64,000 nt of DNA from Alphaproteobacteria bacterium 43-37. GTDB taxonomy: Bacteria; Pseudomonadota; Alphaproteobacteria; 43-37. Location of the stretch: assembly GCA_001897475.1 (NCBI GenBank), contig MKSY01000026.1:25324-89323 (forward strand), written 5' to 3'. The translations under genes and the position numbers were made by a program. The notes beneath the pieces are model-generated. The model saw nothing but the letters and a program-made list of their open reading frames with translations, ran no database searches and was not told the origin of the DNA. This document shows, piece after piece, positions 101-47,268 of this stretch (positions within the stretch are counted from its first letter, which is position 1; each line of letters starts with the position of its first letter).

Positions 101-1252
101 TCATGATGTTATCCTCTGGGGGGCGGAATTTATGGTTTTTGAATACCTGTGTTGTACGCGCTTGTAAAGGCTTGCCCATGTTTGCATAAATTGATCCACA
201 TCTTTATCGCCTGATGACCACCCAAAGCTGACGCGGATGGCTGATTTAGCTGATTCATAGGAGGCGCTCATGGCAAGCAAAACATGGGAAGGGTGCAGTT
301 TTTTAGAGGCGCAGGCTGCTCCGGCGCTGGCATAAATATGGGCTAAGTCCAGTGTCATGAGTTGGCTCTCTTGACTGAGTGATGATACGCTAAAGCAAGA
401 TGTATTGGGTAGCCGTTCCGCATTTTTCCCATAAATAGTGATGTCAGGTGCTATGGCTTGTAGCGCATCTTCAAGTTTTTCACGCAAGGAAAATGTATTT
501 CGTTCTAATGACAATGTCATAATGTCAGGTGCGAGGGCTGCGAATCCAGCGATGGCTGGGAGATTTTCAGTGCCGGCGCGCAGGCCCATTTCTTGGAGCC
601 CGCCTTTGAACAAAGAACTTGGCTTTGCCGTGGGTGAGAAAATGAGTGCACCTATTCCAAGTGGGCCGCCAAGTTTATGAGCCGACAAGGTCATATAATC
701 CACGCTAAGTTCATCGAACATAAAAGCATGTTTTCCTAAGGCTTGAGATGCATCAGTATGAACATACCCGCCATAATGTTTAACAACGGCTGAAATTTCC
801 TTGATGGGTTGAATGACGCCTGTCTCATTATTGGCAAGCATCACGCTGACAAGAAGGGGATGCGCAATGCATCGTTTTTTGAGTCTGGTTTGCAGGATTT
901 CTAGATCGATAACACCGTCTTCGTTGACAGGCAAACAATTGTCTGGATGAGCATAGGATCTTACTGAGTCATGTTCTATGTTTGAGCATAAAATTTCAAA
1001 CCCTTGTCTTTGCGCGTCCAGTAATATTATGGCATTGGCTTCGGTCCCGCCGCTTGTGAATATAGCCTGCTCTGGCTTGGTGCCAACTACGCTTGCTATC
1101 GCTTTTCGATAGCCTTCCAGCCTCTTTTTTGCCTCGCGGCCCAAGGTATGTATGGCAGACGCATTGCCAATGCATGCGTATTCATCCATTATTGCTTTAT
1201 GGCAAATGGGCCTTAAGGGGGATGTTGCGTTATGGTCCAAATAGGTGCTCAT
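101..1252 (-). CDS. Cysteine desulfurase (NifS/IscS family, PLP-dependent)
   Basis: The ORF translation contains [13 protein letters not shown] near the N-terminus, a PLP Lys motif (SAHKLGGP) and class V aminotransferase architecture. The likely start is Met6 at 1252. The gene is coupled to the upstream Rrf2 gene. Confidence 0.85.
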
Positions 1253-1713
1253 GCTGCTCCTGCGCATGTTTTATTTTGATGAGGGTCAGAAGAAGCAAGC
1301 AGATCAATCAAGGTTTTTTGTCCCAAGTAGATTGTAATCTGTTCCTCAAGATTTTCCCATAAATGGTGAACCATGCAGCGAGCGTTCTCACCCTGGCAGC
1401 CGGTTGTGCCCGTTGAGTTGCATCGAGTCACTTGTAAAGGTTCATCGATTGCAGCGAGAATTTCAGTGATCTTAATTGCCTCGGGTGTTAATGCAAGGAT
1501 ATAACCGCCTTTTTGCCCACGGGTGCTTTTAACGAGCCCGTGGTTTTTCAATTGGTTGAATATTTGCTCAAGAAACGCTAAGGGCAGTTTTTGCCGATCA
1601 GAAATTGAGGAAAGCCTCACTGGCTCTTGAGTTGCATGCATCGCAAGGTCTGCCATTGCTAGAAGGGCGTAATGACTTTTAATTCCAAATCTCATTAAAG
1701 GTTCCGTGGTCAT
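1249..1713 (-). CDS. Rrf2-family transcriptional regulator (IscR-like)
   Basis: It has an N-terminal winged-helix region (MRFGIKSHYALLAMADLA). It lies directly upstream of the cysteine desulfurase in the same operon. The true start may be Met7 at about 1695. Confidence 0.75.
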   Translation of the reverse strand: MTTEPLMRFGIKSHYALLAMADLAMHATQEPVRLSSISDRQKLPLAFLEQIFNQLKNHGLVKSTRGQKGGYILALTPEAIKITEILAAIDEPLQVTRCNSTGTTGCQGENARCMVHHLWENLEEQITIYLGQKTLIDLLASSDPHQNKTCAGAA

Positions 1714-1875
1714 TTGATTTTTGTGGACAAAAAGCAGCGTTTTAGGTAATATAGTTCATCGCAAAAAGCGATGCTTTTTTGATCTGTGAATCCATTATAA
1801 GATTCCTGATTAATTTAGTCAACAATGAATGATTTTGGTGCTTCGACACCACAAACATAATGATAAGAGGACGCA

Positions 1876-7442: not shown

Positions 7443-7931
7443 ATGAGTAAGATTTCATTTACATGCGATCTCCATAAAACGGTTGAAGTCCTTCTTTGGG
7501 TCATGGGTCAATCAAAGGAGGGTGTCAATCTGTATAACCTTGTTAAAACGATCTTTCATGCTGATTGTTACCACTTGAACAACTATGGAAGGCCAGTCAC
7601 AGGGGATCATTACATTGCGATGGATCATGGAACTGTCCCCAGCTGGGTTTATGACTTGCTCAAGCATGATCCTTTTACGTTATGTGATGCTGGGTATGAA
7701 CTAGGCGGCCAAACCCTTCCCTTTGAAGCTAAAGGGAATATGCTGGTTGCCAAGCGCCCCTTTAACCCAGACTTTTTATCTGAAAGTGACATTGAGGCCC
7801 TTCAGCAAGGTTTTAAAGAGTATGGAACTTTGTCGTTTCATGAGGTCAGAAATAAGAACCACTCACACCCAGCTTGGAAGAAATACTATTTTGAACAGCC
7901 CATCAAGAAATTCTTTTTGAAGCACTTATAA
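7443..7931 (+). CDS. Panacea-domain (SocA/GepA-like, DUF4065) protein, a putative antitoxin
   Basis: The motif block LYNLVKTIFHADCYHLNNYGRPVTGDHYIAMDHGTVPSWVYDLLKH matches the Panacea-domain consensus (KLQKLLY...GPV..VY). Confidence 0.6.
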   Translation: MSKISFTCDLHKTVEVLLWVMGQSKEGVNLYNLVKTIFHADCYHLNNYGRPVTGDHYIAMDHGTVPSWVYDLLKHDPFTLCDAGYELGGQTLPFEAKGNMLVAKRPFNPDFLSESDIEALQQGFKEYGTLSFHEVRNKNHSHPAWKKYYFEQPIKKFFLKHL

Positions 7932-8471: not shown

Positions 8472-8619
8472 CTACCGCTGAATATCAACAATCAATTTAT
8501 TCCCAACCTAATTTGTTACCTAGGAGAAGAACTTGAAGGTGTCTAATTTCAAAGACCCTAGGGAAGTTATGGTGGGCGATGAGGGGATTGAACCCCCGAC
8601 CCTCTCGGTGTAAACGAGA
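8472..8619. repeat. attL: direct repeat of the attR region, including a 50-bp exact copy of the tRNA-Val 3' end (8570-8619)
   Basis: Positions 8570-8619 are identical to 47194-47243. About 95 bp of imperfect homology extend leftward (ctgaatatcaacaatcaatttattcc...ttgttacctaggagaa). Confidence 0.75.
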
Positions 8620-8734
8620 TTCCAGTATTGTCATGGAATTATCAAAAGCTATAATTTTTGTTTTATTTTTAGTGGCTTACGCAAAATCTAAAATCATCTG
8701 GTGTCACTAAAAATTTGCTATTTTATCCATTTTT

Positions 8735-8756
8735 TGTTACCTATATGTTACCTAGA
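8735..8756 (+). promoter_or_regulatory. Tandem TTGTTACCTA repeats upstream of int (candidate integrase arm-type sites)
   Basis: ttgttacctatatgttacctag recurs exactly at 47127-47148 beside attR, and as a single copy at 8514-8524. Confidence 0.4.
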
Positions 8757-8773
8757 TCAAAAATGATGGATAG

Positions 8774-9967
8774 ATGCCAAAACTAACAAGAAAGATTATT
8801 GACGAATTAAAACCTGATCTTTCAAAAGAAAGATGCCTTTGGGATACTGAGATTAAAGGGTTTGGTATAAGGATACAAAAGAGCGATAAGAAAACGTTTA
8901 TTTATGTCTACAGAAACTCAAGCGGCAAGCTGAGAAAATTCAAGCTTGGTAATTATGGTAGCCTTACTGTTGAGCAGGCAAGAGAGCGCGCTTTAAAAAC
9001 TTCTGCTAAGGTTATCCTTGGTGAAGACCCTGTTAAAGAAAAGGAAGAGATAGTACTCGCTCGAAAAAATGCAGTTTACACTGTTTCTGACCTCATAAAT
9101 GACTACATGTTAAATTATGCTCCAGCAAACATAAAAAAAATTACCATAGGAAAATGGAAAAGCTTTATAAGGCTTTATATCTTGCCCGAATGGGGGGCTA
9201 GACCAGTCAATGAAATTAAAAAATCTGATGCTGAAAAGCTAAAGGCTAGCCTTAAGGATAAAAAGACTACTGCTAACCAGGTATTATGTATACTCTCAAG
9301 TATGTTTAATCATGCCATTGAATGGGGTAAAATCACTGAAAATCCCATTACTAAAGTTAAAAAGTATAAGGAACATAAAAGGCTTCGTTGGGCTGATGGT
9401 GAAGAGTTTGAACGATTATGGTCAACCCTTCAAAGTTACAAGGGCTATGCGCCTGCTGATGTTCTTATCTTTATTCTTTTAACTGGCTCACGTAAAAGTG
9501 AGGTTTTTAAGGCTAGTTGGGATCAATTTGATCTTGAAAAAGGTATTTGGGTTAAGCCCCACATTAATACAAAGCAGCAACGAAACGAGTATATTCCTCT
9601 TTCTCATGAGGCTATAGAGTTTCTTCAGGAATTAAGAGGGTATTCCTCTGACTATTACCTTTTTCCTGGTCGGGTTCCGGGTTCACATATTACAGATGTC
9701 AAAAAGTTCTGGGCTAAGGTTCTTAAAGAAGCCAACATTGACAACCTGCGCATCCATGATCTGCGGCATACGTACGCATCCCACCTGGTCTCCAGTGGTT
9801 TGAGTCTTAGTATTGTGGGTAGGCTTTTAGGACACTCAAACCCAAATACCACCCAGCGCTATGCCCATTTGGCTGATCAGGCTCTGCGTGATGCCACAAA
9901 CCTGTTTGCGGGTAAGCTGAAGAAAATTACGCAGAAAGATTCATCCTCAAAAGAACCTTCATTATAA
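8774..9967 (+). CDS. int: Tyrosine integrase (P4-type, with N-terminal arm-binding DUF4102-like domain)
   Basis: The catalytic block is RIHDLRHTYASHLVSSGLSL...LLGHSNPNTTQRYAHL (R, HxxR, Y). The N-terminus has WDTEIKGFGIRI. The gene is adjacent to attL. Confidence 0.9.
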   Translation: MPKLTRKIIDELKPDLSKERCLWDTEIKGFGIRIQKSDKKTFIYVYRNSSGKLRKFKLGNYGSLTVEQARERALKTSAKVILGEDPVKEKEEIVLARKNAVYTVSDLINDYMLNYAPANIKKITIGKWKSFIRLYILPEWGARPVNEIKKSDAEKLKASLKDKKTTANQVLCILSSMFNHAIEWGKITENPITKVKKYKEHKRLRWADGEEFERLWSTLQSYKGYAPADVLIFILLTGSRKSEVFKASWDQFDLEKGIWVKPHINTKQQRNEYIPLSHEAIEFLQELRGYSSDYYLFPGRVPGSHITDVKKFWAKVLKEANIDNLRIHDLRHTYASHLVSSGLSLSIVGRLLGHSNPNTTQRYAHLADQALRDATNLFAGKLKKITQKDSSSKEPSL

Positions 9968-13629: not shown

Positions 13630-13705
13630 CAAATTTTTGATAGATACTTGTTTTTTTATTTGTGTTATTTAAGATGCTTTTTAAGAAAATTTTGAAAGAA
13701 ATAAA

Positions 13706-14164
13706 ATGAGTGAAAGCAGATTAACAAAGAACTTTATTGCTACTGAAATTAACCCTATTGTTGCGACTTATTTTGATCTTAAAGATTATTTGAGTGCCTT
13801 TATAAGTCAGGCTAGAACTGTTACACATATTGAAACTTTATTGCAACCATACCTAATCCCAAGGCAACCTTCATTTGCAAATGATCTTGTGCCTATACTT
13901 AAAAAACTCTCGGCAGAAGACGGCGCTATATTAACACGCTTTATTTCTCATCATGAAACCATAGTAAGAATGTTGAGTGATACAAAACAGCTAAATCTAG
14001 ACCATGCTGAAGTATTGTTTGAAAAAGTAGTAGAGGGTTTGCAATTGCTTGGCGATTTGCTTGAAAAATTTAATGTTGATTTAATACTTGTAACCCCTCG
14101 AGGGCAAAAAATCATGGCTATTCAAAAAATAAGAGATCCAAAATTTTATGAAATAATTATTTAA
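13706..14164 (+). CDS. Hypothetical protein, an AT-rich moron between the capsid and tail genes
   Basis: The 152-aa ORF has a strongly AT-rich upstream region and its composition differs from the flanking structural genes. No recognisable domain. Confidence 0.4.
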   Translation: MSESRLTKNFIATEINPIVATYFDLKDYLSAFISQARTVTHIETLLQPYLIPRQPSFANDLVPILKKLSAEDGAILTRFISHHETIVRMLSDTKQLNLDHAEVLFEKVVEGLQLLGDLLEKFNVDLILVTPRGQKIMAIQKIRDPKFYEIII

Positions 14165-14874: not shown

Positions 14875-17142
14875 ATGACAGCCTTACACACCCAGCTGAT
14901 TCCGCATCTTTGTGGCGGCATCTCAAAGCAGCCTGCTTATCTTCGTGGCATTACCATGAGCGAAGATGAGCTGAATACCTGGCCTTCATTGTCTGAAGGA
15001 TTGCGCAAAAAGCCGCCTACATCGTTTGTAGCCAAGTTGAATATCCCTGCATCCGAATCCATCCTCTTTTGCCAAAACCTTGAGATCAGCGAGAAGCTCG
15101 CCTTTACCCTTGTCATCACACCTGGGCAGCTCCATATGTTTGATCCATTTGGTAAGAGCCTTGCGGTTGAGGGTGGTTTATCACTATATCTGATTGGGCA
15201 AAATTTTGCCGCCATTACCATCGCGGATGAAACTTTTATTCTGAATAAAAATAAAACGCCTCAAATGCTGGATGCTTTGGATACCAAGCGTCCCTTTGAA
15301 GGCATGGTCTTCATCCGCCAAGCCATTCGAGATACGACCTATTCAGTATCCATCAATGTGGGTAGCAGCGAGCACTTCTTCTCTCATTCCACCAAAGTGC
15401 TTTCCCGAGATCAAGGAATTGATACGGATATGATCTGCAATAGCCTTTACTCTCAAATGCGCTCTTCATTGCCATCTTCTTTTAAGCTTCAACAACAAGG
15501 CTCTAAAATCTTGATTCAAAATGAGCAAACTGACTTTACCTTGAAAGCCATGGATGGGTTTGGGGATCAGGGGATTCAAGGGATCAAGGACACTATCGGC
15601 GATTTCGCAGAATTACCCCACACAGCCTTTGTAGGCTTTACCGTTGAGGTCAGCAGTGATCCACGGCATAAATTAAACAAAACCCTTCCCAAAGATAGTT
15701 ACTATGTGTGGTATCAAGGTAATGGAGTTTGGACGGAAACCGTCAAAGGCGGCCTGAAATATGCCATTGATCCAACCACCATGCCGCATAAATTGAGCTT
15801 TAATGAAGAAGGAAGGTTTAAGTTCGAGGCAGCTACCTGGAAAGACCGGGATGCTGGCGATGATCAAACAGCTCCTGAGCCTTCGTTCATTGGTACACCA
15901 ATTTCGGACATGGTCTTTTACAAAAGCCGGCTTGGGCTCTTGTGCGGGAGCAATATTGTGTTTTCAGAAACTGACGATATTACGAACTTCTGGCCAACCA
16001 CAACAGCGACTGTGATTGATTCTGACCCCATTGACTTAACAGTCTCAGCCAACCAGCCAGTCTTGTTAAACTATGCTGTGCCCACCTTAAATGGCAATCT
16101 ATTGCTGTTTGCTAATCAAGATCAATTTTTACTGACCGTCAAAGACATTTTAAGCCCCCATACGGTAAGCATCAATATTTACAGCCACTATTCAGGCATC
16201 ACCACTAAACCGATGGAAGCTGAGCAGAGTATTGTGTTTGCCACCAAGCATGGCAATTCAACGGAGGTAAGAGAAATCTCACCCACACTAGCAGATTCTT
16301 ATGATAACAGCACGATTGAAACCTTGACAGATCATGTGCCATCTTTTCTGCCAGACAAATTGACGGAAAGTTTCTCGCTCACAAAGGAAAAACTCTTAGG
16401 CTTTTACAGGCCCAAAAACAAAACCATTTACATATACAAATACCACTGGCGCAAGGATATCAAGGTTCAATCCGCTTGGACAAAATGGGAGTTTCCCCAT
16501 GAGATTGAAGCAATAACAGCAACAGCGGATGGGCTCACGCTGATTGCTAAAACAAGCAGAGGTGAACGACTGATGCTCAAGATGGCCCTAAGAGAAGAGG
16601 CACCAATTTACCTGGACTCACTCACAGAGCTTACCAATGGCACCTTTGATCTTCACACGATATACACTTCATGGAGTCTTCCATTTTTACCTGAGAACGG
16701 CCTTAGAGCTTTTGCAGAGGACAGGACGGAGCTGGAGATAACCATTGATCCAGTCAGCAACCAATGTAGGGTTGGTGGAAATTATTCTCAAAGTTCAGTC
16801 ACGGTAGGATACGGCTATGACTTTGCCTATACCTTCTCACCGTTCTTAGTGAAGCGGGAAGCTCAGTCAGGACAAGTGAGCGCAGAATTGGAAGCGATGC
16901 CATTGGTGAAGGACTTGATTATCACCACGCAAAATACGCCTGAATTTGAAGTAAGCATTGAATCTGAGGGCACATTGCCAACCCAAAGCAGCATCATTCC
17001 GACCACGACCAAACCACAGGCCCAGCGTATCTTGATCTTGGATCGAGCGGAGGGGCTTACCGTTAGGCTCATTTGCAAAGCCCCGTACAGCTGTTTGTTC
17101 CAAAACGCCACCTGGAGATATACTCATGGTCAAATCAACTAA
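14875..17142 (+). CDS. Tail tubular protein B (T7 gp12-like)
   Basis: At about 755 aa, with size and position matching T7 gp12. The internal Met start (MTALHTQLIPHL) has an AGGA RBS and avoids a long overlap with gp11. Confidence 0.7.
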   Translation: MTALHTQLIPHLCGGISKQPAYLRGITMSEDELNTWPSLSEGLRKKPPTSFVAKLNIPASESILFCQNLEISEKLAFTLVITPGQLHMFDPFGKSLAVEGGLSLYLIGQNFAAITIADETFILNKNKTPQMLDALDTKRPFEGMVFIRQAIRDTTYSVSINVGSSEHFFSHSTKVLSRDQGIDTDMICNSLYSQMRSSLPSSFKLQQQGSKILIQNEQTDFTLKAMDGFGDQGIQGIKDTIGDFAELPHTAFVGFTVEVSSDPRHKLNKTLPKDSYYVWYQGNGVWTETVKGGLKYAIDPTTMPHKLSFNEEGRFKFEAATWKDRDAGDDQTAPEPSFIGTPISDMVFYKSRLGLLCGSNIVFSETDDITNFWPTTTATVIDSDPIDLTVSANQPVLLNYAVPTLNGNLLLFANQDQFLLTVKDILSPHTVSINIYSHYSGITTKPMEAEQSIVFATKHGNSTEVREISPTLADSYDNSTIETLTDHVPSFLPDKLTESFSLTKEKLLGFYRPKNKTIYIYKYHWRKDIKVQSAWTKWEFPHEIEAITATADGLTLIAKTSRGERLMLKMALREEAPIYLDSLTELTNGTFDLHTIYTSWSLPFLPENGLRAFAEDRTELEITIDPVSNQCRVGGNYSQSSVTVGYGYDFAYTFSPFLVKREAQSGQVSAELEAMPLVKDLIITTQNTPEFEVSIESEGTLPTQSSIIPTTTKPQAQRILILDRAEGLTVRLICKAPYSCLFQNATWRYTHGQIN

Positions 17143-17641
17143 TAAGTCAAAACTGAAGCTTGTGAAAGCAACCAAAAAGCATGCGATAGAATTGGCCCCA
17201 AACCTCAAGCAGGCTGATTTGGAAGAGATTGCGGCTGCTTCAGGAAGAGACTGTCTCGACAGTGCACCAACCGGCCTGCTGATTCAATCCATTGCCATCT
17301 CAAAAATAGCTTATGCAATCATTTTGCAGAATAAAGGCGGTTCAAAGGAAGTGATCGCCTTAGGCGGTGTGGCACCCCATCCAACTGATCCTCAAATCGG
17401 TATTCCATGGGCGTTTACTTCCGATAAGGTGAGGGCTTGTCCAAAGGACTTTATGATGAAGGTAAGACAAGCCCTCAATAAATTTTACACGCATTTTCCA
17501 ACGTTGACTAACTTTGTTTACTATAAGAATATGACGGCGATAAGGTGGCTAGAAAGATTGGGGTTTGGTTTTGCAAGGAAAAAATTAAAATATCGAAATG
17601 ATGAAGCGCGTCTCATACAATTTGTTTTGAGAAAATTTTGA
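17126..17641 (+). CDS. Internal virion protein A-like (gp13 position)
   Basis: Support is position only, after tail tubular protein B. It is a basic N-terminal 171-aa protein. Confidence 0.35.
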   Translation: MVKSTNKSKLKLVKATKKHAIELAPNLKQADLEEIAAASGRDCLDSAPTGLLIQSIAISKIAYAIILQNKGGSKEVIALGGVAPHPTDPQIGIPWAFTSDKVRACPKDFMMKVRQALNKFYTHFPTLTNFVYYKNMTAIRWLERLGFGFARKKLKYRNDEARLIQFVLRKF

Positions 17642-17642
17642 A

Positions 17643-18236
17643 TTAGTAACTTCGGTATATCTTATCTTCAGGTTTATACCCTCTAAGCTTCATATGTTCC
17701 AAAAGGTCCCTACCTTGGTCGCTTAAAATAAATTCATCATCTTCTTGTTTAGTAACTAATTTATAGACATTTTCTAAGGGGATCAGATAGTCGCTTAGGC
17801 CATAGGCTGCATCGCTTAAAATGTTCTGTTTATCGGCTTCTTTAAAAAAATTTGCTAGATCCTTCCTTTTTAATGGTTTTTCCTCCATTTTTGAAAGAAG
17901 GTAAAGCTGAGTGTAACTTAATTGATTATACGTCCACTCACACCAAATGATAAAATCTTTGACTTTCATCTCTCTGTCAATTTTATCCATCGTTTCCATG
18001 TATTTTGACTGATACTCAGCATCAATTTTTTCAATGATTTCCGAAAAATCCTTTTCGGTTTCTGGGTTAATTGCTCCCGGCCCAATTGATACACCGCTCC
18101 TGTCAATCCTGTTGATTTTACTAATTAGCTCTTTAATTTCAGAAGAAAAATGTCTTACAATTACAAAAACAACCAGAGGCCAACTTAAAGTACTTAAGAA
18201 ATCAAGAAATTTGCTTAAAATAACGGTAATATCCAT
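17643..18236 (-). CDS. Hypothetical membrane protein, an opposite-strand AT-rich moron
   Basis: The 197-aa ORF has an N-terminal transmembrane helix (LSTLSWPLVVFVIV). It is the only minus-strand gene in the gp12-gp14 stretch and is AT-rich. Confidence 0.5.
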   Translation of the reverse strand: MDITVILSKFLDFLSTLSWPLVVFVIVRHFSSEIKELISKINRIDRSGVSIGPGAINPETEKDFSEIIEKIDAEYQSKYMETMDKIDREMKVKDFIIWCEWTYNQLSYTQLYLLSKMEEKPLKRKDLANFFKEADKQNILSDAAYGLSDYLIPLENVYKLVTKQEDDEFILSDQGRDLLEHMKLRGYKPEDKIYRSY

Positions 18237-18371
18237 TGTTACCTTTGTGCTAAATAGTAAGAGAAAAAATAAATTGGGTCGGTTATCAACAAATCATTAG
18301 CACCTTAGTCTTTTCAAAACCATAAATTTTTAGCATTCGCTTAAGGCTTAATCAAGTTATATCACGCTCTT

Positions 18372-18989
18372 TTGAAAAAAAATTGTGAATATCTGCTATT
18401 TAGGATTCTCTCAATGCTCCCAATTTCCTCCACCCACCTGTTTGCGATGAATGCTGCTATGTCGGCCAGTCAAAGCCTTTTGGGCTACATGCAAGCGCGG
18501 CAAAATGCTGCTGCTCAGCGTGCGCATAACGCTATGATCGAAGCGATCAATCAGCAGAATGCTTTGAGCGCTTATGATACATATTACAATAACCTCCAGG
18601 CCCTGGAATCACGCCTTTCGGAAGAATACATGACAACCGGCCAAAAATTGGTCTTATCACAAAAACAGGCTCTTGAAGTAGCCGGCCATGCGAGAGCGAG
18701 CGCCGCTGCTTCAGGTTTTGGCGGCGTATCCATTAACAACATGATGCGTCAGATCGCTGGGCAATTCTCAGCATCTGATCGAACAGCTCGTAAGAACATG
18801 GATAACCAGGCTATCCAATCTTACCGCAATGCTTTGGGGATGCACCATGAGACGCTCTCAAAAGCCAATAATGTGATCCCAACCACCCCAGTACAAAAGC
18901 CATCTCCATGGGCCCATATGCTCGGCCTTGGCGGAGATTTGATGCGCACTTACACATCTTTGCAAATAGCTAAAGGAAGCATTCGATGA
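18372..18989 (+). CDS. Internal virion protein B (gp14-like)
   Basis: It is about 200 aa and Ala/Gln-rich, with size, composition and position like T7 gp14. Confidence 0.5.
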   Translation: MKKNCEYLLFRILSMLPISSTHLFAMNAAMSASQSLLGYMQARQNAAAQRAHNAMIEAINQQNALSAYDTYYNNLQALESRLSEEYMTTGQKLVLSQKQALEVAGHARASAAASGFGGVSINNMMRQIAGQFSASDRTARKNMDNQAIQSYRNALGMHHETLSKANNVIPTTPVQKPSPWAHMLGLGGDLMRTYTSLQIAKGSIR

Positions 18990-20773: not shown

Positions 20774-21184
20774 TTACCGTAACGTAGGTAAAAAAAGGTT
20801 GCCAGCTGAAAACACATGAAGGGCTCCAGCTGCTGCGGGTGCTGGGGCTGCTTTTGCTGCTGCCGCGGGTGGCGCAGCGCTGGCTCCTCCACTTAGCGCG
20901 GTGGTAGCCGCTGCGGCTTCTTTCTTTCCCGGCGCGCCTCCTGAACCTGAACTGGCTTTAGCTGCTGCAATTAATGGTTTATAAGAAGCAGCAAATTCCA
21001 AGCGCATATCATCCATTGACCGAAAATCTCTAATAAAACGATCGGGTTGGGCATGAGCTAACCCCGCATTCAAAATCAATCCTAACAACAATACATATCT
21101 CATTTTATCCATAAACCTAACTCTAGTAAAAATATTCATCATATTTACCTTATAATTATTTCCTCTGTTTTTTGCAATCAGCAA
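20774..21184 (-). CDS. Small secreted Ala-rich protein (an opposite-strand moron)
   Basis: It has a signal peptide (MRYVLLLGLILNAGLAHA) followed by an A/G/P-rich low-complexity tail. Confidence 0.45.
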   Translation of the reverse strand: MLIAKNRGNNYKVNMMNIFTRVRFMDKMRYVLLLGLILNAGLAHAQPDRFIRDFRSMDDMRLEFAASYKPLIAAAKASSGSGGAPGKKEAAAATTALSGGASAAPPAAAAKAAPAPAAAGALHVFSAGNLFLPTLR

Positions 21185-21205: not shown

Positions 21206-21655
21206 ATGCTCACCTTATTTGGGGCCCTGTTGGGCTTTTTATCCAGTGCCATGCCCGAGATCATGCGCTTCATAAATCAACACCGCGATCGCATCCAGGA
21301 GCTTTCCATCATGGATCGGCAAATGGAACTCACCAAACAAGGTCATACCCATCGCCTTGAAGAAATCCGCCTTACCTCTGAATCCAATGAACAAATCGCC
21401 CTGATCCAAAGCCAACGGCGAGTAAAAGTTAAATGGGTGGATGGATTGGCGGGCTCTGTTCGTCCTGTGATCACCTATGCCTTCTTTGGTCTTTATGCTG
21501 CTGTGAAGATTGCCAGCTGGTATTCTTGGGTAAATGGATCAAACGTTCCTGCCATTACAGCCTTGATTCATATTTGGAGCGGTGAGGATGAAGCCTTGTT
21601 TGCGGCTGTCATGTCCTTCTGGTTTGGGCATCGCGCATTGAATCGAAAGAAGTAG
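21206..21655 (+). CDS. Putative holin or lysis membrane protein
   Basis: It has two to three predicted transmembrane segments and lies immediately upstream of the endolysin, 3 bp away. Confidence 0.45.
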   Translation: MLTLFGALLGFLSSAMPEIMRFINQHRDRIQELSIMDRQMELTKQGHTHRLEEIRLTSESNEQIALIQSQRRVKVKWVDGLAGSVRPVITYAFFGLYAAVKIASWYSWVNGSNVPAITALIHIWSGEDEALFAAVMSFWFGHRALNRKK

Positions 21656-21657
21656 CT

Positions 21658-22098
21658 ATGCGAACAATATCAAGCAAAGGGCTAGCCCTCATCAAGCACT
21701 TTGAGGGGTTTAAGGACAAACCTTACACATGCCCAGGGGGATATGTCACGATTGGGTATGGCCATGTGATAGGTAAAGATGAGGAATTCAAAACCCTTAT
21801 AGAACATGAAGCTGAAGAGCTCTTAATCCACGATGCACAAAAAGCTCTTCACGCCTTAAGCCGTCTTGTCAAAATCCCACTTACACAGCCTCAGGTGGAT
21901 GCTTTAATTTCGTTTATCTTTAACCTTGGAGCTGGAGCTTTCCAGCGTTCCACCTTAAGGGCGAGCATTAACCGCCGCGATCACACACAGGCGTGCTTGG
22001 AGTTCCTCAAATGGACAAAGGCAAGTGGCAAGGTTTTGAGTGGTTTACTCAAACGCCGGCAGGCTGAAGCAAGGCTTTACCAGTCTGGTATTTGCTGA
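21658..22098 (+). CDS. Endolysin, GH24 phage lysozyme
   Basis: LIKHFEGFKDKPYTCPGGYVTIGYGH is the canonical T4-lysozyme-family catalytic motif (E, D, T). Confidence 0.85.
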   Translation: MRTISSKGLALIKHFEGFKDKPYTCPGGYVTIGYGHVIGKDEEFKTLIEHEAEELLIHDAQKALHALSRLVKIPLTQPQVDALISFIFNLGAGAFQRSTLRASINRRDHTQACLEFLKWTKASGKVLSGLLKRRQAEARLYQSGIC

Positions 22099-26040: not shown

Positions 26041-26319
26041 ATGATTAAGACGTTTAAGTGCAGAGAAACAGAAAAGCTATTTAACGACCAGATGGTTAAA
26101 GGTTTTAGGGCCTTTGAACGGCAGGCAAGAAGGAAGCTATTATTACTGCATGCTGCCAAAGGTTTGGAAGACCTCAAATCACCTCCTGGCAACCATTTGG
26201 AAAGCTTAAAAGGTGATCGTCAAAGCCAGTACAGCATTCGCATTAATAATCAATGGCGGCTGTGTTTTGAATGGACCGATAATAACGCTTATGAAGTAGA
26301 GATAGTTGATTATCATTAG
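26041..26319 (+). CDS. higB: HigB toxin (RelE/ParE superfamily, plasmid-killer type)
   Basis: It is 92 aa with the conserved C-terminal block WRLCFEWTDNNAYEVEIVDYH. Its stop abuts the start of higA. Confidence 0.8.
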   Translation: MIKTFKCRETEKLFNDQMVKGFRAFERQARRKLLLLHAAKGLEDLKSPPGNHLESLKGDRQSQYSIRINNQWRLCFEWTDNNAYEVEIVDYH

Positions 26320-26657
26320 TGAGAAGAGCCATGTCAGAACTTGATCTTATTACCCCTGGAGAAATTCTTCTTGAAGAGTTTATGAAACCAAATGACATTA
26401 GTCAGGCTCAAATGGCTAAGGACTTGAATATTCCCGTTTCGCGCATTAGGGGGGTTGTGCATGGTCGCTCTCACATTACGGCTGATTTAGCATTAAGGCT
26501 TGCCCGATATTTTGGAACAACAGCAGAATTATGGCTCAGTCTTCAAAACGAGTATGATGTGCGAAAAACCCAACGTGCTATTGGCAAGGATATCAAAAGA
26601 CAAGTCCAGCCGCTCGTAAAACATTTTACAAACAACCTATCTGAATCACATCGCTAA
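26319..26657 (+). CDS. higA: HigA antitoxin (XRE-family HTH)
   Basis: ITPGEILLEEFMKPNDISQAQMAKDLNIPVSRIRGVVHGRSHITADLALRLARYFGTTAELWLSLQNEYD is the typical HigA/VapI HTH. Confidence 0.8.
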   Translation: MRRAMSELDLITPGEILLEEFMKPNDISQAQMAKDLNIPVSRIRGVVHGRSHITADLALRLARYFGTTAELWLSLQNEYDVRKTQRAIGKDIKRQVQPLVKHFTNNLSESHR

Positions 26658-31404: not shown

Positions 31405-33348
31405 TTAAGACTTTTTGCCAGACCAACACCATTTTGCAAAATCAACTGCGGCCCAGAAAACCCCACCACGCCCACCTCCTGCAGCATCGCCTCCTTGACT
31501 CAATTCACCACCAAGACCAACACCTGTTCCTCCGGCTGCTGCTGCCGTACCTCCAGTTGATCCAACTGCAGCACCGGCCCCGGCTGAGGTAGAACCACCT
31601 TGCAACGTTGTTCCCCCTGCTCCAGTGACTGTGCTTCCTCCAGTAGCCACTGTTCCATAATTAAAGACTGCACCAGCCCCAGCAATTACCCCTGGCCGCC
31701 TTACAAAATAAATAATCGAACCAACAGCCGCAATTCCCACTACGGTACTAATGATTGGGCGCTCTAGAGCATAATGAACGGCACCATGGCCATAAGTTGT
31801 TAGTATATTTAAAATGCCGCCTTGCTGCACATTATCTCCCTGATTGATTAGCACCCTATTCCTTGCTCCAACACCTTCAACATTATGCGCACCTCTAGCT
31901 TCACCCCCATTTGCGGCTGCTGTTGCTTGTCCTGTTGAGGCTGCGCCCCTACTTGCCGCTCCTGCGCCGCCATGGGTGGCAATTGTGCCACCAGGGTAAG
32001 CGGTATGATGGTCTCCAGCTATGTTGTTGACAACATTATATTGAAAAGATTGGGCTGATCCTAGTGTTGGTGTGGCTGGCATTGACGCCGCGCCTGGAAC
32101 TGCACTGGTGGGTAACGTAGCCACGGAGAAGGATGATGCCACCGTATCAAATTCTGACCCTACGTCTCTTTCTGAGACTTCTAGTGTTTTTGCAGCTTCA
32201 GCAAGAATTGCTTGTACGGTTTTATAAGCATCTGATGAACTTGGAATACGGGATAGTAATTCCCTTAATACTGCCTGAGCCTCTTCTGCAAGTTCTGCGT
32301 TATGGCTAAATTTTTCCCAAGCAGACTTGAATGAATTAATGTCAATTCCATTTCCTCTTAGTTTAAGCCTATAAAGTCTCGCCCAAGCACCGTATTCGTT
32401 ATCCGGGTTCCTGCTTTTTACAATTTCATCTAAGTCCGCTAATGCCTCTTTGTGATCTGCATATTCGCCATTTCTATATGCAGCAATAAGTGCTCTTATG
32501 CTCGCATCTCTGTTAGCTATTTTTTCACGATCTCCTCCACTTGGTATTCTAATGTGTCCTAACCATGTGTCTCTTCTCTCTGTCAACCCCGGGGTTCCTG
32601 GCGCTGCTGCAGCGCCAACATCCACCGCTGTTGCTCTTCCTCTCCCGGTCTCGGCAGCTGATGCTGAGACAGGCTCAAACGCCCCCGTAGCTGGGTTAAG
32701 CCTGGTATGTAATGTTGGTAGTCCAGCTCCACCGCTTGCCCCTGCACCCCCTGCTGCTGCTAAGCCTGGCGCTGAGTCATCTTCTTCAACATCTGTTCGG
32801 GCAGGAACGCCTGGCTTGTTTGTTTTGGTAGCGAATGGTGTTGGTGATGCAGAAAAATAGGGATTACCCCTGCCAACTTTAATGCCATTAACAATATCAT
32901 ATGGGAGGTAAGAGGGCGTTGGGGAAGAAGCTGGGTAGAGTACTGCTATTTGTTCAAGAGTTAGCCTACCTTGCTCACCATCCACCCTTACTGGATAATT
33001 TCTTAGGCTTTCTATTCCATGAGTTGTTGTTTCATCAGCTCTTCTTGAAGGAGAAGCCGTTGCTGAGGGCATCATTGAAGGTTCAAACATGGGATTTACG
33101 TCAAACTGTATGGCTAATGGGCTTGGATTCGGAAGAGTAACAGTTCTTCCTCTTGGAAAAAACCCACCAAAGAACTCACCGGCTCCTGAAGGCTGGGCAC
33201 AGACATTCTTAGTTGGGAATGATGAAAGAATGGTGGTCAAAGCCAAAGCTTTAGCCAAAAGGAGTTTTGTTCCTTTACCTAACGTATTGCTGATATTCAT
33301 AAAAACCTCCAAGAGTGCATGAATATTTGTAACTATTATGTGATTCAT
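31405..33348 (-). CDS. Large Gly/Ala-rich protein predicted to be secreted, with a C-terminal TM helix and a poly-Gly tail
   Basis: It has an N-terminal signal peptide (LLAKALALTTILSSF), a TM helix (ISTVVGIAAVGSIIYFV) and a C-terminal G/A/T low-complexity tail. It is on the minus strand, convergent with the terminase. Confidence 0.5.
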   Translation of the reverse strand: MNHIIVTNIHALLEVFMNISNTLGKGTKLLLAKALALTTILSSFPTKNVCAQPSGAGEFFGGFFPRGRTVTLPNPSPLAIQFDVNPMFEPSMMPSATASPSRRADETTTHGIESLRNYPVRVDGEQGRLTLEQIAVLYPASSPTPSYLPYDIVNGIKVGRGNPYFSASPTPFATKTNKPGVPARTDVEEDDSAPGLAAAGGAGASGGAGLPTLHTRLNPATGAFEPVSASAAETGRGRATAVDVGAAAAPGTPGLTERRDTWLGHIRIPSGGDREKIANRDASIRALIAAYRNGEYADHKEALADLDEIVKSRNPDNEYGAWARLYRLKLRGNGIDINSFKSAWEKFSHNAELAEEAQAVLRELLSRIPSSSDAYKTVQAILAEAAKTLEVSERDVGSEFDTVASSFSVATLPTSAVPGAASMPATPTLGSAQSFQYNVVNNIAGDHHTAYPGGTIATHGGAGAASRGAASTGQATAAANGGEARGAHNVEGVGARNRVLINQGDNVQQGGILNILTTYGHGAVHYALERPIISTVVGIAAVGSIIYFVRRPGVIAGAGAVFNYGTVATGGSTVTGAGGTTLQGGSTSAGAGAAVGSTGGTAAAAGGTGVGLGGELSQGGDAAGGGRGGVFWAAVDFAKWCWSGKKS

Positions 33349-33621
33349 TATTAAGTTAACGATAATAATGGATATGGATAAATCAAGTACTATAACGGTA
33401 TAATCTAGGGAAAATGATCAAGCTTAAGATAAATATCTATTTCAATCAATGAAATAGAAGATATTATTTTTAATGAATAATTGGCATTCACTAAACGTTC
33501 CATTGATTGTTAATATCTTTAAGCAAATTACTTAATAACAAAAATATTTTTTTACAAAAATCTCAAACCCCAACTCTCCCGGTAACCGTCAGCGCTTTCC
33601 CCCGTAGGGGTGGCCACTCCG

Positions 33622-34218
33622 TCATAGCAGATCGATGAGTGCACGTTGGGCGTCGGTGTTAGCATCAATGTAGCGCTGGGTCATGGAAAGGGACGCATGA
33701 CCTGCCAGCAGCTGTACGTCTCTCAGGCTTCCTCCTACTGTCGACACCTTCCTAGCCGCATTGGTGATGAATGTTCTGCGCCCAGAATGGCTGGAGCAGC
33801 CGATGAGGCCAAGAGCTGCATACACCTTTTTGAACCAATGGACTACGTTGCAGGTGTGCATTTTACAGCCATGCTTACTAAAGATGATGTGTTTATGAGG
33901 CTCTGGTGAATGGTGCGCCTTCCTTACAACCATTCTTAAAATGATAAGTGCATCTTTCAACTGTGGATGCAGAGGAATAATCCGTCCTGACTTGCCCTTG
34001 CTGGCAGAGGATGGCAGGTGGATGTGGTTACTGATGTTCCCATCAGGATCAAGCACCATGGCCCAGGTTAGCTCAGCAATTTCCTTGGCTCGTAAACCTG
34101 CTTTAAAGGAAAGCAGCACCATTACCATATTACGCTCAGGATAGGTTAAGGCTGATACGTGATAAAGTATCCTCTCCATGTCTTTTGTTCTTAAAACTTT
34201 TGCTTGTCTACCAATCAT
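33622..34218 (-). CDS. Tyrosine recombinase, catalytic domain only (198 aa)
   Basis: It has the catalytic R (LRAKE), HSGRRTF (HxxR), LAGHASLSMTQRY (H and Y) and lacks an N-terminal core-binding domain. Confidence 0.7.
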   Translation of the reverse strand: MIGRQAKVLRTKDMERILYHVSALTYPERNMVMVLLSFKAGLRAKEIAELTWAMVLDPDGNISNHIHLPSSASKGKSGRIIPLHPQLKDALIILRMVVRKAHHSPEPHKHIIFSKHGCKMHTCNVVHWFKKVYAALGLIGCSSHSGRRTFITNAARKVSTVGGSLRDVQLLAGHASLSMTQRYIDANTDAQRALIDLL

Positions 34219-34752
34219 TTAATGCACTCATTTCAGCGGTTACTCACTACTTTTATGTGCAAATCTATGCTTGATTTTTAAAGATGGCCCTTGAATAGGG
34301 CTTCAACCTTCACTTGCACAATAAATTAATCTTTCATGTTCAACAGATGCTATGTGAGCATTGTTCAGGGCAAAAATCAAGTCTGCCGCCAACTCAACCC
34401 GTTGGTTTTGCTGGAGTTTTAGTCCATCCAAGTCAGTGTGTTGCCTTAAAAATTTTGAAGTTTGTCACTTTAACAAAAGCCGGGATTTTATAATGGAGTA
34501 TTTGTAGCTGGTAAATGGTCAGTGCATTGTGGATTGAACATTGATCAAATGAAACTGTAATATGTTGATTCAATATGATGTTTTAAGGCTTATGTCAACA
34601 TAATGATCAATTATGCATCATAATCCCTATATTTTGACCCCTGAATGGCCTTTGGGATATTGGGTGGCCCAAAAGCTCCAGAAATAGATAAAACGTATCA
34701 GTGAGCAGATTTTGGGCATTTATGACGATGTTGCTGTTTTTGTTATCTTTTC

Positions 34753-35793
34753 TCATAAAGCCTTCTTAATTAAACCAACCAAAGTCTTCATGGCTTGATC
34801 ATGAATAACGTTCTTATGGCAGTGTAGGTAAACATCAGCCGTGCCAACAGGCTCGTTCATAACCTTGACGAGTTGACTTCTATGGATCAGATCAGGCGGG
34901 TAAAGGGCAATGCCAACACCTACTTCACATAGCTTGAGCGCCATGTAGGAATGATTCACCTCTGTGATGTTTTCGGGTGGGATGTTTCCAAACCCAGCCA
35001 TCCAGTTGGCATCAAAAGTTGTATTGCCACTCACTCGTGTCACAATGATGGAATGGTTTGTTAAGTCAGCTGAAGAAAGGCTGCCAAACTTCTTCATATA
35101 TTCTGGACTTGCAAAAAGATAGCTTTGGTAGGTTTTTAAATGGATGGCTTCAAAGCCTCTGGAGATTTGATCAATGGGCCAGATGATGACGTCTGCTTCT
35201 TTAAACTTCTTATCCGGCAGAGCTGATAGCGTGTAAATGCATAGCTGAATCTGGGGGAATGCATCTTTAAACTGTTTCAGCACTTTGGGAAACACAGATA
35301 TGCCAAGAGGCAGTGTGGTGAATATTTTTATCTGATGGATGTTTGTTTTATCGGTTGCATCATTATAAGTGTCCCACTGCAACTTTGAAAAAATCTCATT
35401 GACCATTTGATAAACTTTGTCTCCTGAAGTCGTCAGCTCATACCCACGTGGTTCTCGATCAAATAGCAAAACCCTAAGAATATCTTCGAGCTTTTGAATA
35501 TTATAAGTTACCGCAGAAGGGGACATTTTTAGGTTCTTTGCGGCTAATCTACGGGTTTTGTAATAAACGCAGGCATGAAAGACTTTGAGCTGCAAAATGT
35601 TGGCACAGAGGAGGGTTTCATTTAAATGATTCTCACAAGATACGTTTTCTTGTCTTTTCCTTAGATGTGAAACTTTGGGAGTTCTAGGCTTTTTTCTTTT
35701 AGTGATTTGAAGTGATCGTTTCTGTGTCACGGTTTTAGCCTCTTTCTTGAAAACTAAACTCAAAAATTGCTCTGCCACAAATATACCGATCAA
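34753..35793 (-). CDS. LysR-family transcriptional regulator with an N-terminal Lys/Arg-rich extension
   Basis: It has an HTH (LQLKVFHACVYYKTRRLAAKNLKMSPSAVTYNIQKLE) and a LysR substrate-binding domain. It is divergent from the RNAP gene. About 60 aa of basic leader (KRKKPRTPKVSHLRKRQ) precede the HTH. Confidence 0.8.
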   Translation of the reverse strand: MIGIFVAEQFLSLVFKKEAKTVTQKRSLQITKRKKPRTPKVSHLRKRQENVSCENHLNETLLCANILQLKVFHACVYYKTRRLAAKNLKMSPSAVTYNIQKLEDILRVLLFDREPRGYELTTSGDKVYQMVNEIFSKLQWDTYNDATDKTNIHQIKIFTTLPLGISVFPKVLKQFKDAFPQIQLCIYTLSALPDKKFKEADVIIWPIDQISRGFEAIHLKTYQSYLFASPEYMKKFGSLSSADLTNHSIIVTRVSGNTTFDANWMAGFGNIPPENITEVNHSYMALKLCEVGVGIALYPPDLIHRSQLVKVMNEPVGTADVYLHCHKNVIHDQAMKTLVGLIKKAL

Positions 35794-47119: not shown

Positions 47120-47243
47120 TCTAACTTGTTACCTATATGTTACCTAGGAGAAAAATCCAGAAGTTGCTAACTTCAAAAACCCTAGGGAAACTATGGTGGG
47201 CGATGAGGGGATTGAACCCCCGACCCTCTCGGTGTAAACGAGA
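47086..47243. repeat. attR: direct repeat partner of 8472-8619, overlapping the 3' 50 nt of tRNA-Val
   Basis: Positions 47194-47243 are identical to 8570-8619. The upstream imperfect homology contains the TTGTTACCTA tandem at 47127-47148. Confidence 0.75.
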
Positions 47244-47268
47244 CGCTCTCCCGCTGAGCTAATCGCCC
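47194..47268 (-). tRNA. tRNA-Val (anticodon TAC)
   Basis: The reverse complement reads GGGCGATTAGCTCAGCGGGAGAGCGTCTCGTTTACACCGAGAGGGTCGGGGGTTCAATCCCCTCATCGCCCACCA. It has a 7-bp acceptor stem, a TTTACAC anticodon loop, a TTCAATC T-loop and CCA. Confidence 0.85.

Follow-up and report, generated by a model that had tools for sequence, protein, structure and literature searches.

In T7-like phages the late genes are all read in one direction by the phage polymerase, and temperate members of this group have been little studied. In phage HK97, the moron gene gp15 lies within the late operon and encodes an inner-membrane protein responsible for superinfection exclusion (PMC3594210). Morons have been defined as extra DNA located between genes that are adjacent in related phages, carrying its own promoter and terminator and being expressed from the repressed prophage (PMC3594210). 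In the phage TP-J34, the acidic helix-turn-helix (HTH) domains of the membrane-anchored protein Ltp recognise not DNA but the tape measure protein, which is basic (PMC12426086). Here, we analyzed a stretch of 64,000 nucleotides (nt) from Alphaproteobacteria bacterium 43-37 (contig MKSY01000026.1, positions 25,324 to 89,323), hereafter the window, which contains a T7-like prophage. Within this prophage, an open reading frame (ORF) of 197 amino acids (aa), named ORF197, sits on the minus strand between the genes for two internal virion proteins similar to gp13 and gp14 of T7-like phages. ORF197 is very probably a real cargo gene that occupies an insertion hotspot and encodes a membrane-tethered winged-helix protein.

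A sequence-only reading of the window had first pointed to this minus-strand ORF between gp13-like and gp14-like genes, and its position was borne out; both flanking genes matched the expected families by profile. We compared this junction with the corresponding one in three cultured alphaproteobacterial Autographiviridae, namely Mesorhizobium phage Lo5R7ANS, Roseobacter phage CRP-125 and Rhizobium phage RHEph21. In all three phages, gp13 and gp14 overlapped or were separated by 4 nt at most, with nothing between them. The closest relatives of the prophage were two elements, L013 and L014, whose nozzle proteins were 89 and 92% identical to its own, respectively, and which were recovered from a metagenome that also yielded one copy of this prophage. 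ORF197 was absent from both. Instead, the slot of L013 contained on the minus strand a ParE-like toxin (PF15781, 1.4e-33) and a ParD-like antitoxin (PF11903, 3.6e-14), and that of L014, again on the minus strand, a ParE toxin (PF05016, 1e-8) and a Phd/HTH_3 antitoxin. No relative was found when genome contigs were searched with the nozzle protein, and a search of metagenome contigs with gp14 recovered just two more L014-type prophage copies (L018 and L019), in which the slot was arranged as in L014. Of these two, L019 has a nozzle gene interrupted by the gene for a 391-aa transposase (587-1762, minus strand), indicating a prophage in decay.

A three-way DNA alignment of the slot (alignment A3) revealed that homology with L013 and L014 is lost about 24 codons ahead of the gp13 stop codon and regained about 15 nt before the gp14 ATG. 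The three cassettes had G+C contents (GC) of 0.328, 0.340, and 0.366, compared with 0.45 to 0.48 for the flanks, and the minus-strand orientation was common to all three cargos. We observed no repeats flanking the cassette that would suggest a dedicated insertion mechanism. Because the slot is empty in the distant phages and holds a different AT-rich, minus-strand cargo in the closest relatives, the gp13-gp14 junction is shown, at the level of sequence, to be a cargo hotspot that accommodates at least three alternative cargos, ORF197 among them. The empty slot in the cultured relatives and the alternative cargo in L013 and L014 also uphold the earlier suggestion that ORF197 is a moron, in the sense of an inserted accessory gene. 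Absence of the gene from related prophages had been expected to speak against that suggestion. ORF197 is indeed absent from them, but this does not refute the idea, since a hotspot is defined by the exchange of one cargo for another. No description of such a hotspot in temperate T7-like phages was found in the literature searched, and it appears to be undescribed.

ORF197 itself is a real gene, because the chance of finding 197 stop-free codons at its composition is only 3.8e-8, because it has full-length homologues with a conserved architecture, and because its fold was predicted with confidence (mean predicted local distance difference test score, pLDDT, of 84). Public records contain the identical protein on 8 contigs, among which several independent samples are represented, and its exact sequence forms a singleton cluster. 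A Shine-Dalgarno-like AAAGG motif (18242-18246, minus strand) is located 5 nt ahead of the ATG of ORF197, and this start is 177 nt away from that of gp14. Positions 18237-18300, which the sequence-only reading had included in the interval of the gene, are non-coding DNA upstream of it. At the other end, the stop codons of ORF197 and gp13 are convergent, with 1 nt between them. The GC of ORF197 is 0.337 and its GC at third codon positions (GC3) is 0.328, lower, as had been noticed before, than those of the neighbouring structural genes (GC of 0.42-0.50, GC3 of 0.41-0.53). Compared with all 594-nt segments of the prophage, the GC of ORF197 ranks within the lowest 1.4% (z = -2.7). The gene is foreign-looking in composition and was very probably acquired horizontally. 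The minus strand of the spacer upstream of ORF197 contains no partner ORF of at least 40 aa, and reading its sequence revealed just one ORF of 7 codons. We found no local palindrome or operator in these 177 nt. Within the gp13 coding region, we observed an inverted repeat whose 12-bp arms match perfectly and enclose a loop of 24 nt (17430-17441 / 17466-17477). This repeat lies approximately 170 nt downstream of the ORF197 stop codon on the minus strand and is accompanied by no T-run on either strand.

The ORF197 protein was modelled with AlphaFold2 using an alignment of 22 sequences. The predicted structure starts with two helices (residues 3-29 and 31-46), followed by a disordered segment (47-57) and a long helix (58-105). 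The single N-terminal transmembrane (TM) helix proposed by the sequence-only reading stands in part. A hydrophobic helix is present, but its TM character is borderline, as the Kyte-Doolittle maximum over 19 residues is 1.72 (residues 9-27) in a segment that contains D and P. A single TM helix is plausible from these features. The region covering residues 47-105 varies in length across the homologue family in the alignment. The residues before the hydrophobic helix have a net charge of 0 to -2 in 20 of the 22 family members, while the roughly 19 residues after it carry +2 to +4 in 18 of them (range of -2 to +4). One member with an additional upstream TM segment and a basic N-terminus fits the same topology. 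Based on the positive-inside rule, we infer an N-out/C-in orientation, which would place the winged helix on the cytoplasmic side of the inner membrane.

The sequence-only reading had recognized no domain in this protein, a statement that is now superseded. The C-terminal half of ORF197 is a predicted winged-helix domain, since Pfam matches of its homologues to HTH_45, a profile match to Sso10a and Foldseek matches agree. The domain was modelled at residues 108-185 with a pLDDT of about 90, and comprises helices at 108-119, 124-136, and 147-157 and strands at 161-163 and 168-171. Nine of 15 homologues matched HTH_45 (best E-value of 1.3e-6); ORF197 alone gave no Pfam match to a winged HTH domain at E ≤ 0.1. 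The family profile aligned weakly with Sso10a (1r7j, E = 0.046) over the region of the third helix (H3) and the wing. The top Foldseek matches in the PDB were mostly winged-helix proteins, including F93 of Sulfolobus turreted icosahedral virus (STIV), ST1889, MarR, and PadR. For the modelled domain, these matches show the fold class and not homology. In a viral structure library, the top match was A0A8S5RYU2, an uncharacterised 233-aa protein of a metagenomic siphovirus, which aligned over the full length (209 columns, E-value of 4.6e-4). The soluble part of ORF197 has an isoelectric point (pI) of 5.13, and H3 plus the wing have a net charge of -4. Because the winged helix is acidic, its charge would favour the binding of a protein or complex over that of operator DNA.

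To describe the family, we searched 1.84e9 representative proteins using phmmer and obtained 14 other sequences at E ≤ 1e-3 (best 4e-8). These homologues are 174 to 246 aa long, share 23-31% identity with ORF197 and mostly align over nearly its full length (residues ~8-190). Profile searches added a dozen further homologues, and a search with a tighter alignment (A4) returned 7 loci. A word-indexed search with ORF197 retrieved only itself. In the architecture shared by 22 sequences, the N-terminus is short and leads into a hydrophobic helix, which is followed by a basic amphipathic helix (F..EI..LI.R), a linker of variable length and a C-terminal domain of about 80 residues. The W19-P20 pair is invariant in one alignment (A1) and present in at least 90% of the members of another (A2). 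The C-terminal domain opens with the motif E-(K/R)-T-Y-x-x-I-F-G-S-Q, and Q110, L154, G175, and L179 are invariant. ORF197 diverges from the other members and has a degenerate form of this opening motif (EWTYNQLSYTQ, with LSYTQ for IFGSQ). The alignments show that ORF197 belongs to a rare and uncharacterised family of single genes, which can be described as 'WP-anchor + FGSQ winged-helix'. Members occur in alphaproteobacterial symbionts, Methylobacterium, Acidobacteria, Patescibacteria, and at least one virus, and are mostly chromosomal rather than carried by phages. When ORF197 was compared by tblastn with 50,697 phage records, the only match was an N-terminal one of 37 residues to a DUF4145 protein of phage D6 (E = 0.3), which we rejected as a homologue and took as anchor similarity only. 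The same search with family member P0015 gave nothing.

We also investigated the genomic neighbourhoods of the homologues. No conserved partner gene was found around the 9 homologues inspected. One homologue adjoins a RelA_SpoT protein that matches the PADLOC candidate PDC-S33 (5.6e-115), and the Methylorubrum homologue adjoins a metallophosphoesterase that matches PDC-S10 (3e-12). Another is located approximately 0.8 kb, or one gene, from a RelB/ParE pair within a nucleotide-metabolism cluster. These defence-gene neighbours are suggestive, as a weak guilt by association far from an enrichment test. The Methylorubrum/Methylobacterium members are 238 aa long (L026, 7587-8303, plus strand) and stand beside the metallophosphoesterase and an AAA ATPase, and a gene upstream of the family member encodes a 688-aa protein that bears an HTH. 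An Acidobacteriales member of 422 aa (L023, 7413-8681, plus strand) has an added multi-TM domain at its N-terminus. In two Holosporaceae genomes, the homologue shows conserved synteny, with a histidine kinase on one side and an EamA transporter on the other.

Table 1. Positions of ORF197, its predicted protein segments and the surrounding prophage features in the window.
Feature	Position	Strand	Basis or remark
ORF197 coding sequence, cargo gene	17643-18236	-	ORF list; ATG start, 197 aa plus stop
Upstream AT-rich spacer, 177 nt	18237-18413	-	Presumed promoter region; weak -35/-10 matches only
Predicted N-terminal membrane anchor, residues 1-46	18099-18236	-	Hydrophobic helix with W19-P20, then basic amphipathic helix
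Linker, residues 47-57 (disordered), and long acidic helix, residues 58-105	17922-18098	-	Model and alignment; pI 4.39
Predicted winged-helix domain, residues 106-186	17679-17921	-	Acidic, pI 5.06
Variable cassette without homology to the L013/L014 slot	17575-18400		Alignment A3; GC 0.328
gp13-like internal virion protein gene, left flank	17126-17641	+	phrog_308 8.9e-28; T7_Gp13 PF11090 1.1e-4, under gathering cut-off
gp14-like internal virion protein gene, right flank	18414-18989	+	PF24072 (T7_gp14) 7.1e-21; phrog_805 9e-17; start per public records
attL, exact 52-bp copy of the tRNA-Val 3' part	8568-8619		Repeat search; left prophage end
attR, exact 52-bp repeat within tRNA-Val (47194-47268, minus strand)	47192-47243		Right prophage end
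Integrase gene	8774-9967		Adjoins attL side

The element carrying ORF197 is an intact temperate T7-like prophage of 38.6 kb integrated at tRNA-Val, and 'lysogen' is therefore a meaningful state for it (Table 1). An Rfam scan detected this tRNA and nothing else. Just inside its ends, we found paired TTGTTACCTATATGTTACCTAG arm-like repeats (8734-8764 and 47126-47156), and TGTTACCTA arm-like sites were likewise repeated just inside both ends. The T7-like gene set of the prophage is complete and begins, in order, with the genes for integrase, portal, scaffold, capsid, tube, nozzle, gp13, gp14, gp15, a holin-like protein, lysozyme, and gp16. The order continues with fibre, terminase, a minus-strand island, T7-type RNA polymerase, single-stranded DNA-binding protein, primase-helicase, Bro/Ant, PolA, and exonuclease. 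Compared with T7, the integrated genome is a circular permutation in which the late genes precede those for RNA polymerase and replication. Upstream of gp13, the tube and nozzle genes were recognized with values of 5e-37 and 2e-149, respectively, and the gp13-like gene also had tblastn matches to internal virion proteins of Autographiviridae.

The holin-like (phrog_6637) and lysozyme (PF00959) genes are located between gp15 and gp16 (21206-22098, plus strand). This placement is a lineage trait, since it is common to L013 and L014; it was not seen in Lo5R7ANS, CRP-125, or RHEph21. The minus-strand island (31405-35793), at the would-be ends of the virion genome between terminase and the T7-type RNA polymerase, comprises three genes, which encode a 647-aa protein without Pfam match, a short integrase-family protein of 198 aa and a LysR-type regulator. 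The gene of this regulator is divergent from that of the RNA polymerase, and the regulator could be a lysogeny switch. Just outside attL, on the host side, a gene for a SocA_Panacea-domain protein was found (7443-7931, plus strand).

Relative to L013, the prophage carries four cargo insertions, one of which is ORF197. The second is also AT-rich and consists of a 152-aa ORF (13706-14164, plus strand; GC of 0.327, GC3 of 0.222) between the capsid and tube genes, co-directional with the late genes. It is absent in L013, where the capsid-tube gap is 49 nt, and in the three cultured relatives, in which capsid and tube genes are likewise adjacent. This ORF forms a singleton cluster without Pfam, PHROG, PADLOC, or NCBIfam match, and AlphaFold, run on the single sequence, gave a helical bundle of low confidence (pLDDT of 64.5) with generic four-helix-bundle matches only. 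The left edges of the two AT-rich cassettes (13674-13700 and 17620-17646) share AGAAAATTTTGAA, a 27-nt repeat with 74% identity, and have a 13-mer in common, which may be fortuitous. The sharing of AGAAAATTTTGAA could be due to chance in AT-rich DNA, or be a remnant of recombination or regulation. The third insertion is a gene between gp15 and the holin-like gene (20774-21112, minus strand), absent from L013 and L014. Its 112-aa product has a signal-peptide-like N-terminus and an Ala/Pro-rich low-complexity region, matches no family and forms a singleton cluster. The fourth is a HigB-like toxin (PF05015, 2e-18) with an HTH_3 antitoxin (26041-26657, plus strand), inserted downstream of gp16, ahead of the tail gene that comes next. 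This pair is missing from L013 and L014, where the gene for the 234/247-aa protein comes directly after gp16.

Our preferred explanation, in which we have moderate confidence, is that ORF197 is lysogen cargo of the moron type. The host RNA polymerase would read ORF197 in the lysogen, at a time when the late operon is shut off, as an opposite-strand gene within this operon could be cleanly expressed only under that condition. The antisense orientation would also prevent read-through from the cargo from switching on gp14 to gp16, holin, and lysozyme. The anchor would then hold the protein N-out/C-in, with the winged helix at the cytoplasmic face of the inner membrane, where this acidic domain would most likely bind a protein partner or an incoming complex and not an operator. 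The benefit would most likely be protection of the lysogen or a competitive advantage, conferred at the inner membrane by exclusion or abortive infection. ORF197 is probably a lysogen-benefit or defence gene. A function in defence or exclusion specifically is put forward only tentatively, the support being circumstantial and limited to the toxin-antitoxin (TA) cargo in the same slot and the two homologues beside PADLOC candidate defence genes. In its most specific form, the explanation would make ORF197 the founding member of a new single-protein, membrane-anchored, acidic winged-helix system of exclusion or abortive infection. From the cytoplasmic side of the inner membrane, such a system would target the ejectosome or the leading DNA of T7-like phages as they infect the cell, and it would be swapped with TA modules at an undescribed gp13-gp14 hotspot of temperate Autographiviridae, a proposal that we regard as doubtful.

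A number of observations weigh against lysogen cargo with a protective role. The promoter that had been anticipated upstream of ORF197 was seen only as a weak match (TTGATT-18-AAAAAT, 8/12, 89 nt from the ATG). No sigma-70-like site of at least 9/12 with normal spacing was found upstream on the minus strand, although the sigma-70 consensus may not be that of the host lineage. The region contained 6 promoter-like sites, none of them convincing, for a shuffle expectation of 4.6 ± 2.3. No terminator-like site was predicted on the minus strand in or downstream of the cassette, the only ones being located upstream within gp14 (18594-18608 and 18799-18817), and the single nucleotide between the ORF197 and gp13 stop codons leaves no spacer for a terminator. 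ORF197 thus lacks a detectable promoter and terminator of its own, by which morons are classically recognized. At the protein level, the hydrophobic segment is only marginally TM-like, every PDB match obtained with Foldseek had E > 0.2, and the charge of the winged-helix domain differs among family members, from -4 to +5, so that an acidic protein-binding surface is not a property of the family as a whole. ORF197 had no match in PADLOC, and those of the family were weak (WH_III-A and LmuC at ~1e-3), except for CARF_TM at 8.8e-6 in two members, which probably arises through the anchor. Moreover, most homologues are lone genes in unremarkable chromosomal neighbourhoods, some of them near housekeeping genes. 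Together with the synteny in Holosporaceae, these lone genes suggest that at least some family members serve the cell and are not directed against phages.

Among the alternatives, the one that survives best holds that ORF197 is a membrane-tethered DNA-binding regulator, acting on prophage, host or incoming DNA, or a tether between DNA and the membrane. It includes the possibility that antisense transcription dampens leaky expression of the late genes, as the orientation of ORF197 relative to the late operon would allow. The winged-helix fold is what such a regulator would be expected to have, the family matches HTH_45, Sso10a, PadR, and MarR-like proteins, and the winged helix of some members is basic (up to +5). 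However, that of ORF197 is acidic, including H3 and the wing, its upstream spacer has neither palindrome nor operator, and the TA pairs found in its place in the closest relatives put ORF197 outside core phage regulation. We consider such a regulator unlikely, and a classical repressor was rejected on the acidic winged helix, the lack of an operator and the dispensability of the gene in relatives.

Alternatively, ORF197 could be a single-gene addiction module or toxin-like stabiliser, the counterpart of the ParDE-type cassettes of the sister prophages. The two other cargos known from the slot are both type II TA modules and share the strand of ORF197, the prophage carries a HigB/HigA pair elsewhere, and a membrane anchor is present in ORF197. 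Yet the spacer offers no partner beyond its 7-codon ORF, ORF197 matched neither a TA family nor, significantly, any other family in Pfam and NCBIfam, and its 197-aa architecture with a soluble domain is unlike that of small membrane toxins. In addition, the homologues are stable single genes in the reduced genomes of Holosporaceae. This explanation is improbable, and a type II TA module as such was rejected, as the cassette consists of a single gene without partner.

It is very improbable that ORF197 serves the lytic cycle, for instance by assisting the internal core or ejectosome, by contributing to assembly or by setting the time of lysis. Its position within the internal-virion-protein cluster, with holin-like and lysozyme genes close by, would suit such a role, but the gene lies on the strand opposite to every late gene, has a foreign composition, and has homologues that are mostly chromosomal and not from phages. 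A virion or lytic function was rejected on the wrong strand and on the absence of the gene from both closest and all cultured relatives examined. Finally, a spurious or decaying ORF without function, in line with its singleton cluster and the lack of demonstrable expression signals, is scarcely credible given the low probability of an open frame by chance, the full-length homologues with conserved architecture and residues, the confident fold and the recurrence of the identical protein in several independent samples. The remaining probability falls to other explanations.

As an accessory cassette in a prophage hotspot, ORF197 is ordinary in kind, while the protein family to which it belongs is uncharacterised. 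The swapping of AT-rich antisense cassettes between gp13 and gp14 makes this site a place to seek genes of benefit to lysogens and genes directed against phages. Should ORF197 not block infection, it would be one further hypothetical moron. If it does, it would represent a new single-gene membrane system and a Gram-negative counterpart of Ltp and similar HTH-based exclusion proteins.

Compared with described proteins, the C-terminal domain of ORF197 has the predicted fold of HTH_45, Sso10a, PadR, and MarR-type proteins, with Sso10a aligning to the family profile across H3 and the wing. Unlike these proteins, ORF197 has an N-terminal anchor, an acidic winged helix and no significant Pfam match. 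With the ParE/ParD and ParE/Phd-HTH cassettes of the sister prophages, it shares the slot, the minus strand, the AT-richness and the cassette size of approximately 0.7 to 0.8 kb. In contrast to them, it comprises one gene only, lacks a partner ORF and contains neither a toxin nor an antitoxin domain.

The resemblance to HK97 gp15 and other morons lies in the presence of an extra gene between late structural genes that are adjacent in relatives, a GC unlike that of the neighbours, a product anchored in the inner membrane (predicted for ORF197) and presumed expression from the prophage (PMC3594210). Unlike gp15, ORF197 is on the opposite strand with no detectable promoter or terminator, and its product is not a small membrane protein, as it is predicted to include a cytoplasmic part of approximately 140 aa made of the long helix and the winged-helix domain. 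ORF197 is also without similarity to any PHROG family of known function, its only matches being phrog_18019 and phrog_18778, both of function unknown, and exclusion by ORF197 is a proposal made by analogy. The Ltp protein of Streptococcus phage TP-J34 differs in being a lipoprotein whose HTH domains lie outside the Gram-positive membrane, whereas ORF197 is predicted to be N-out/C-in with its domain in the cytoplasm, and no homology was detected between the two. Like Ltp, ORF197 is encoded by a prophage and appears to be membrane-tethered with an acidic HTH-type domain, and it is flanked by genes for two basic virion proteins, gp13 and gp14 (pI of ~10, against 5.06 for the winged helix).

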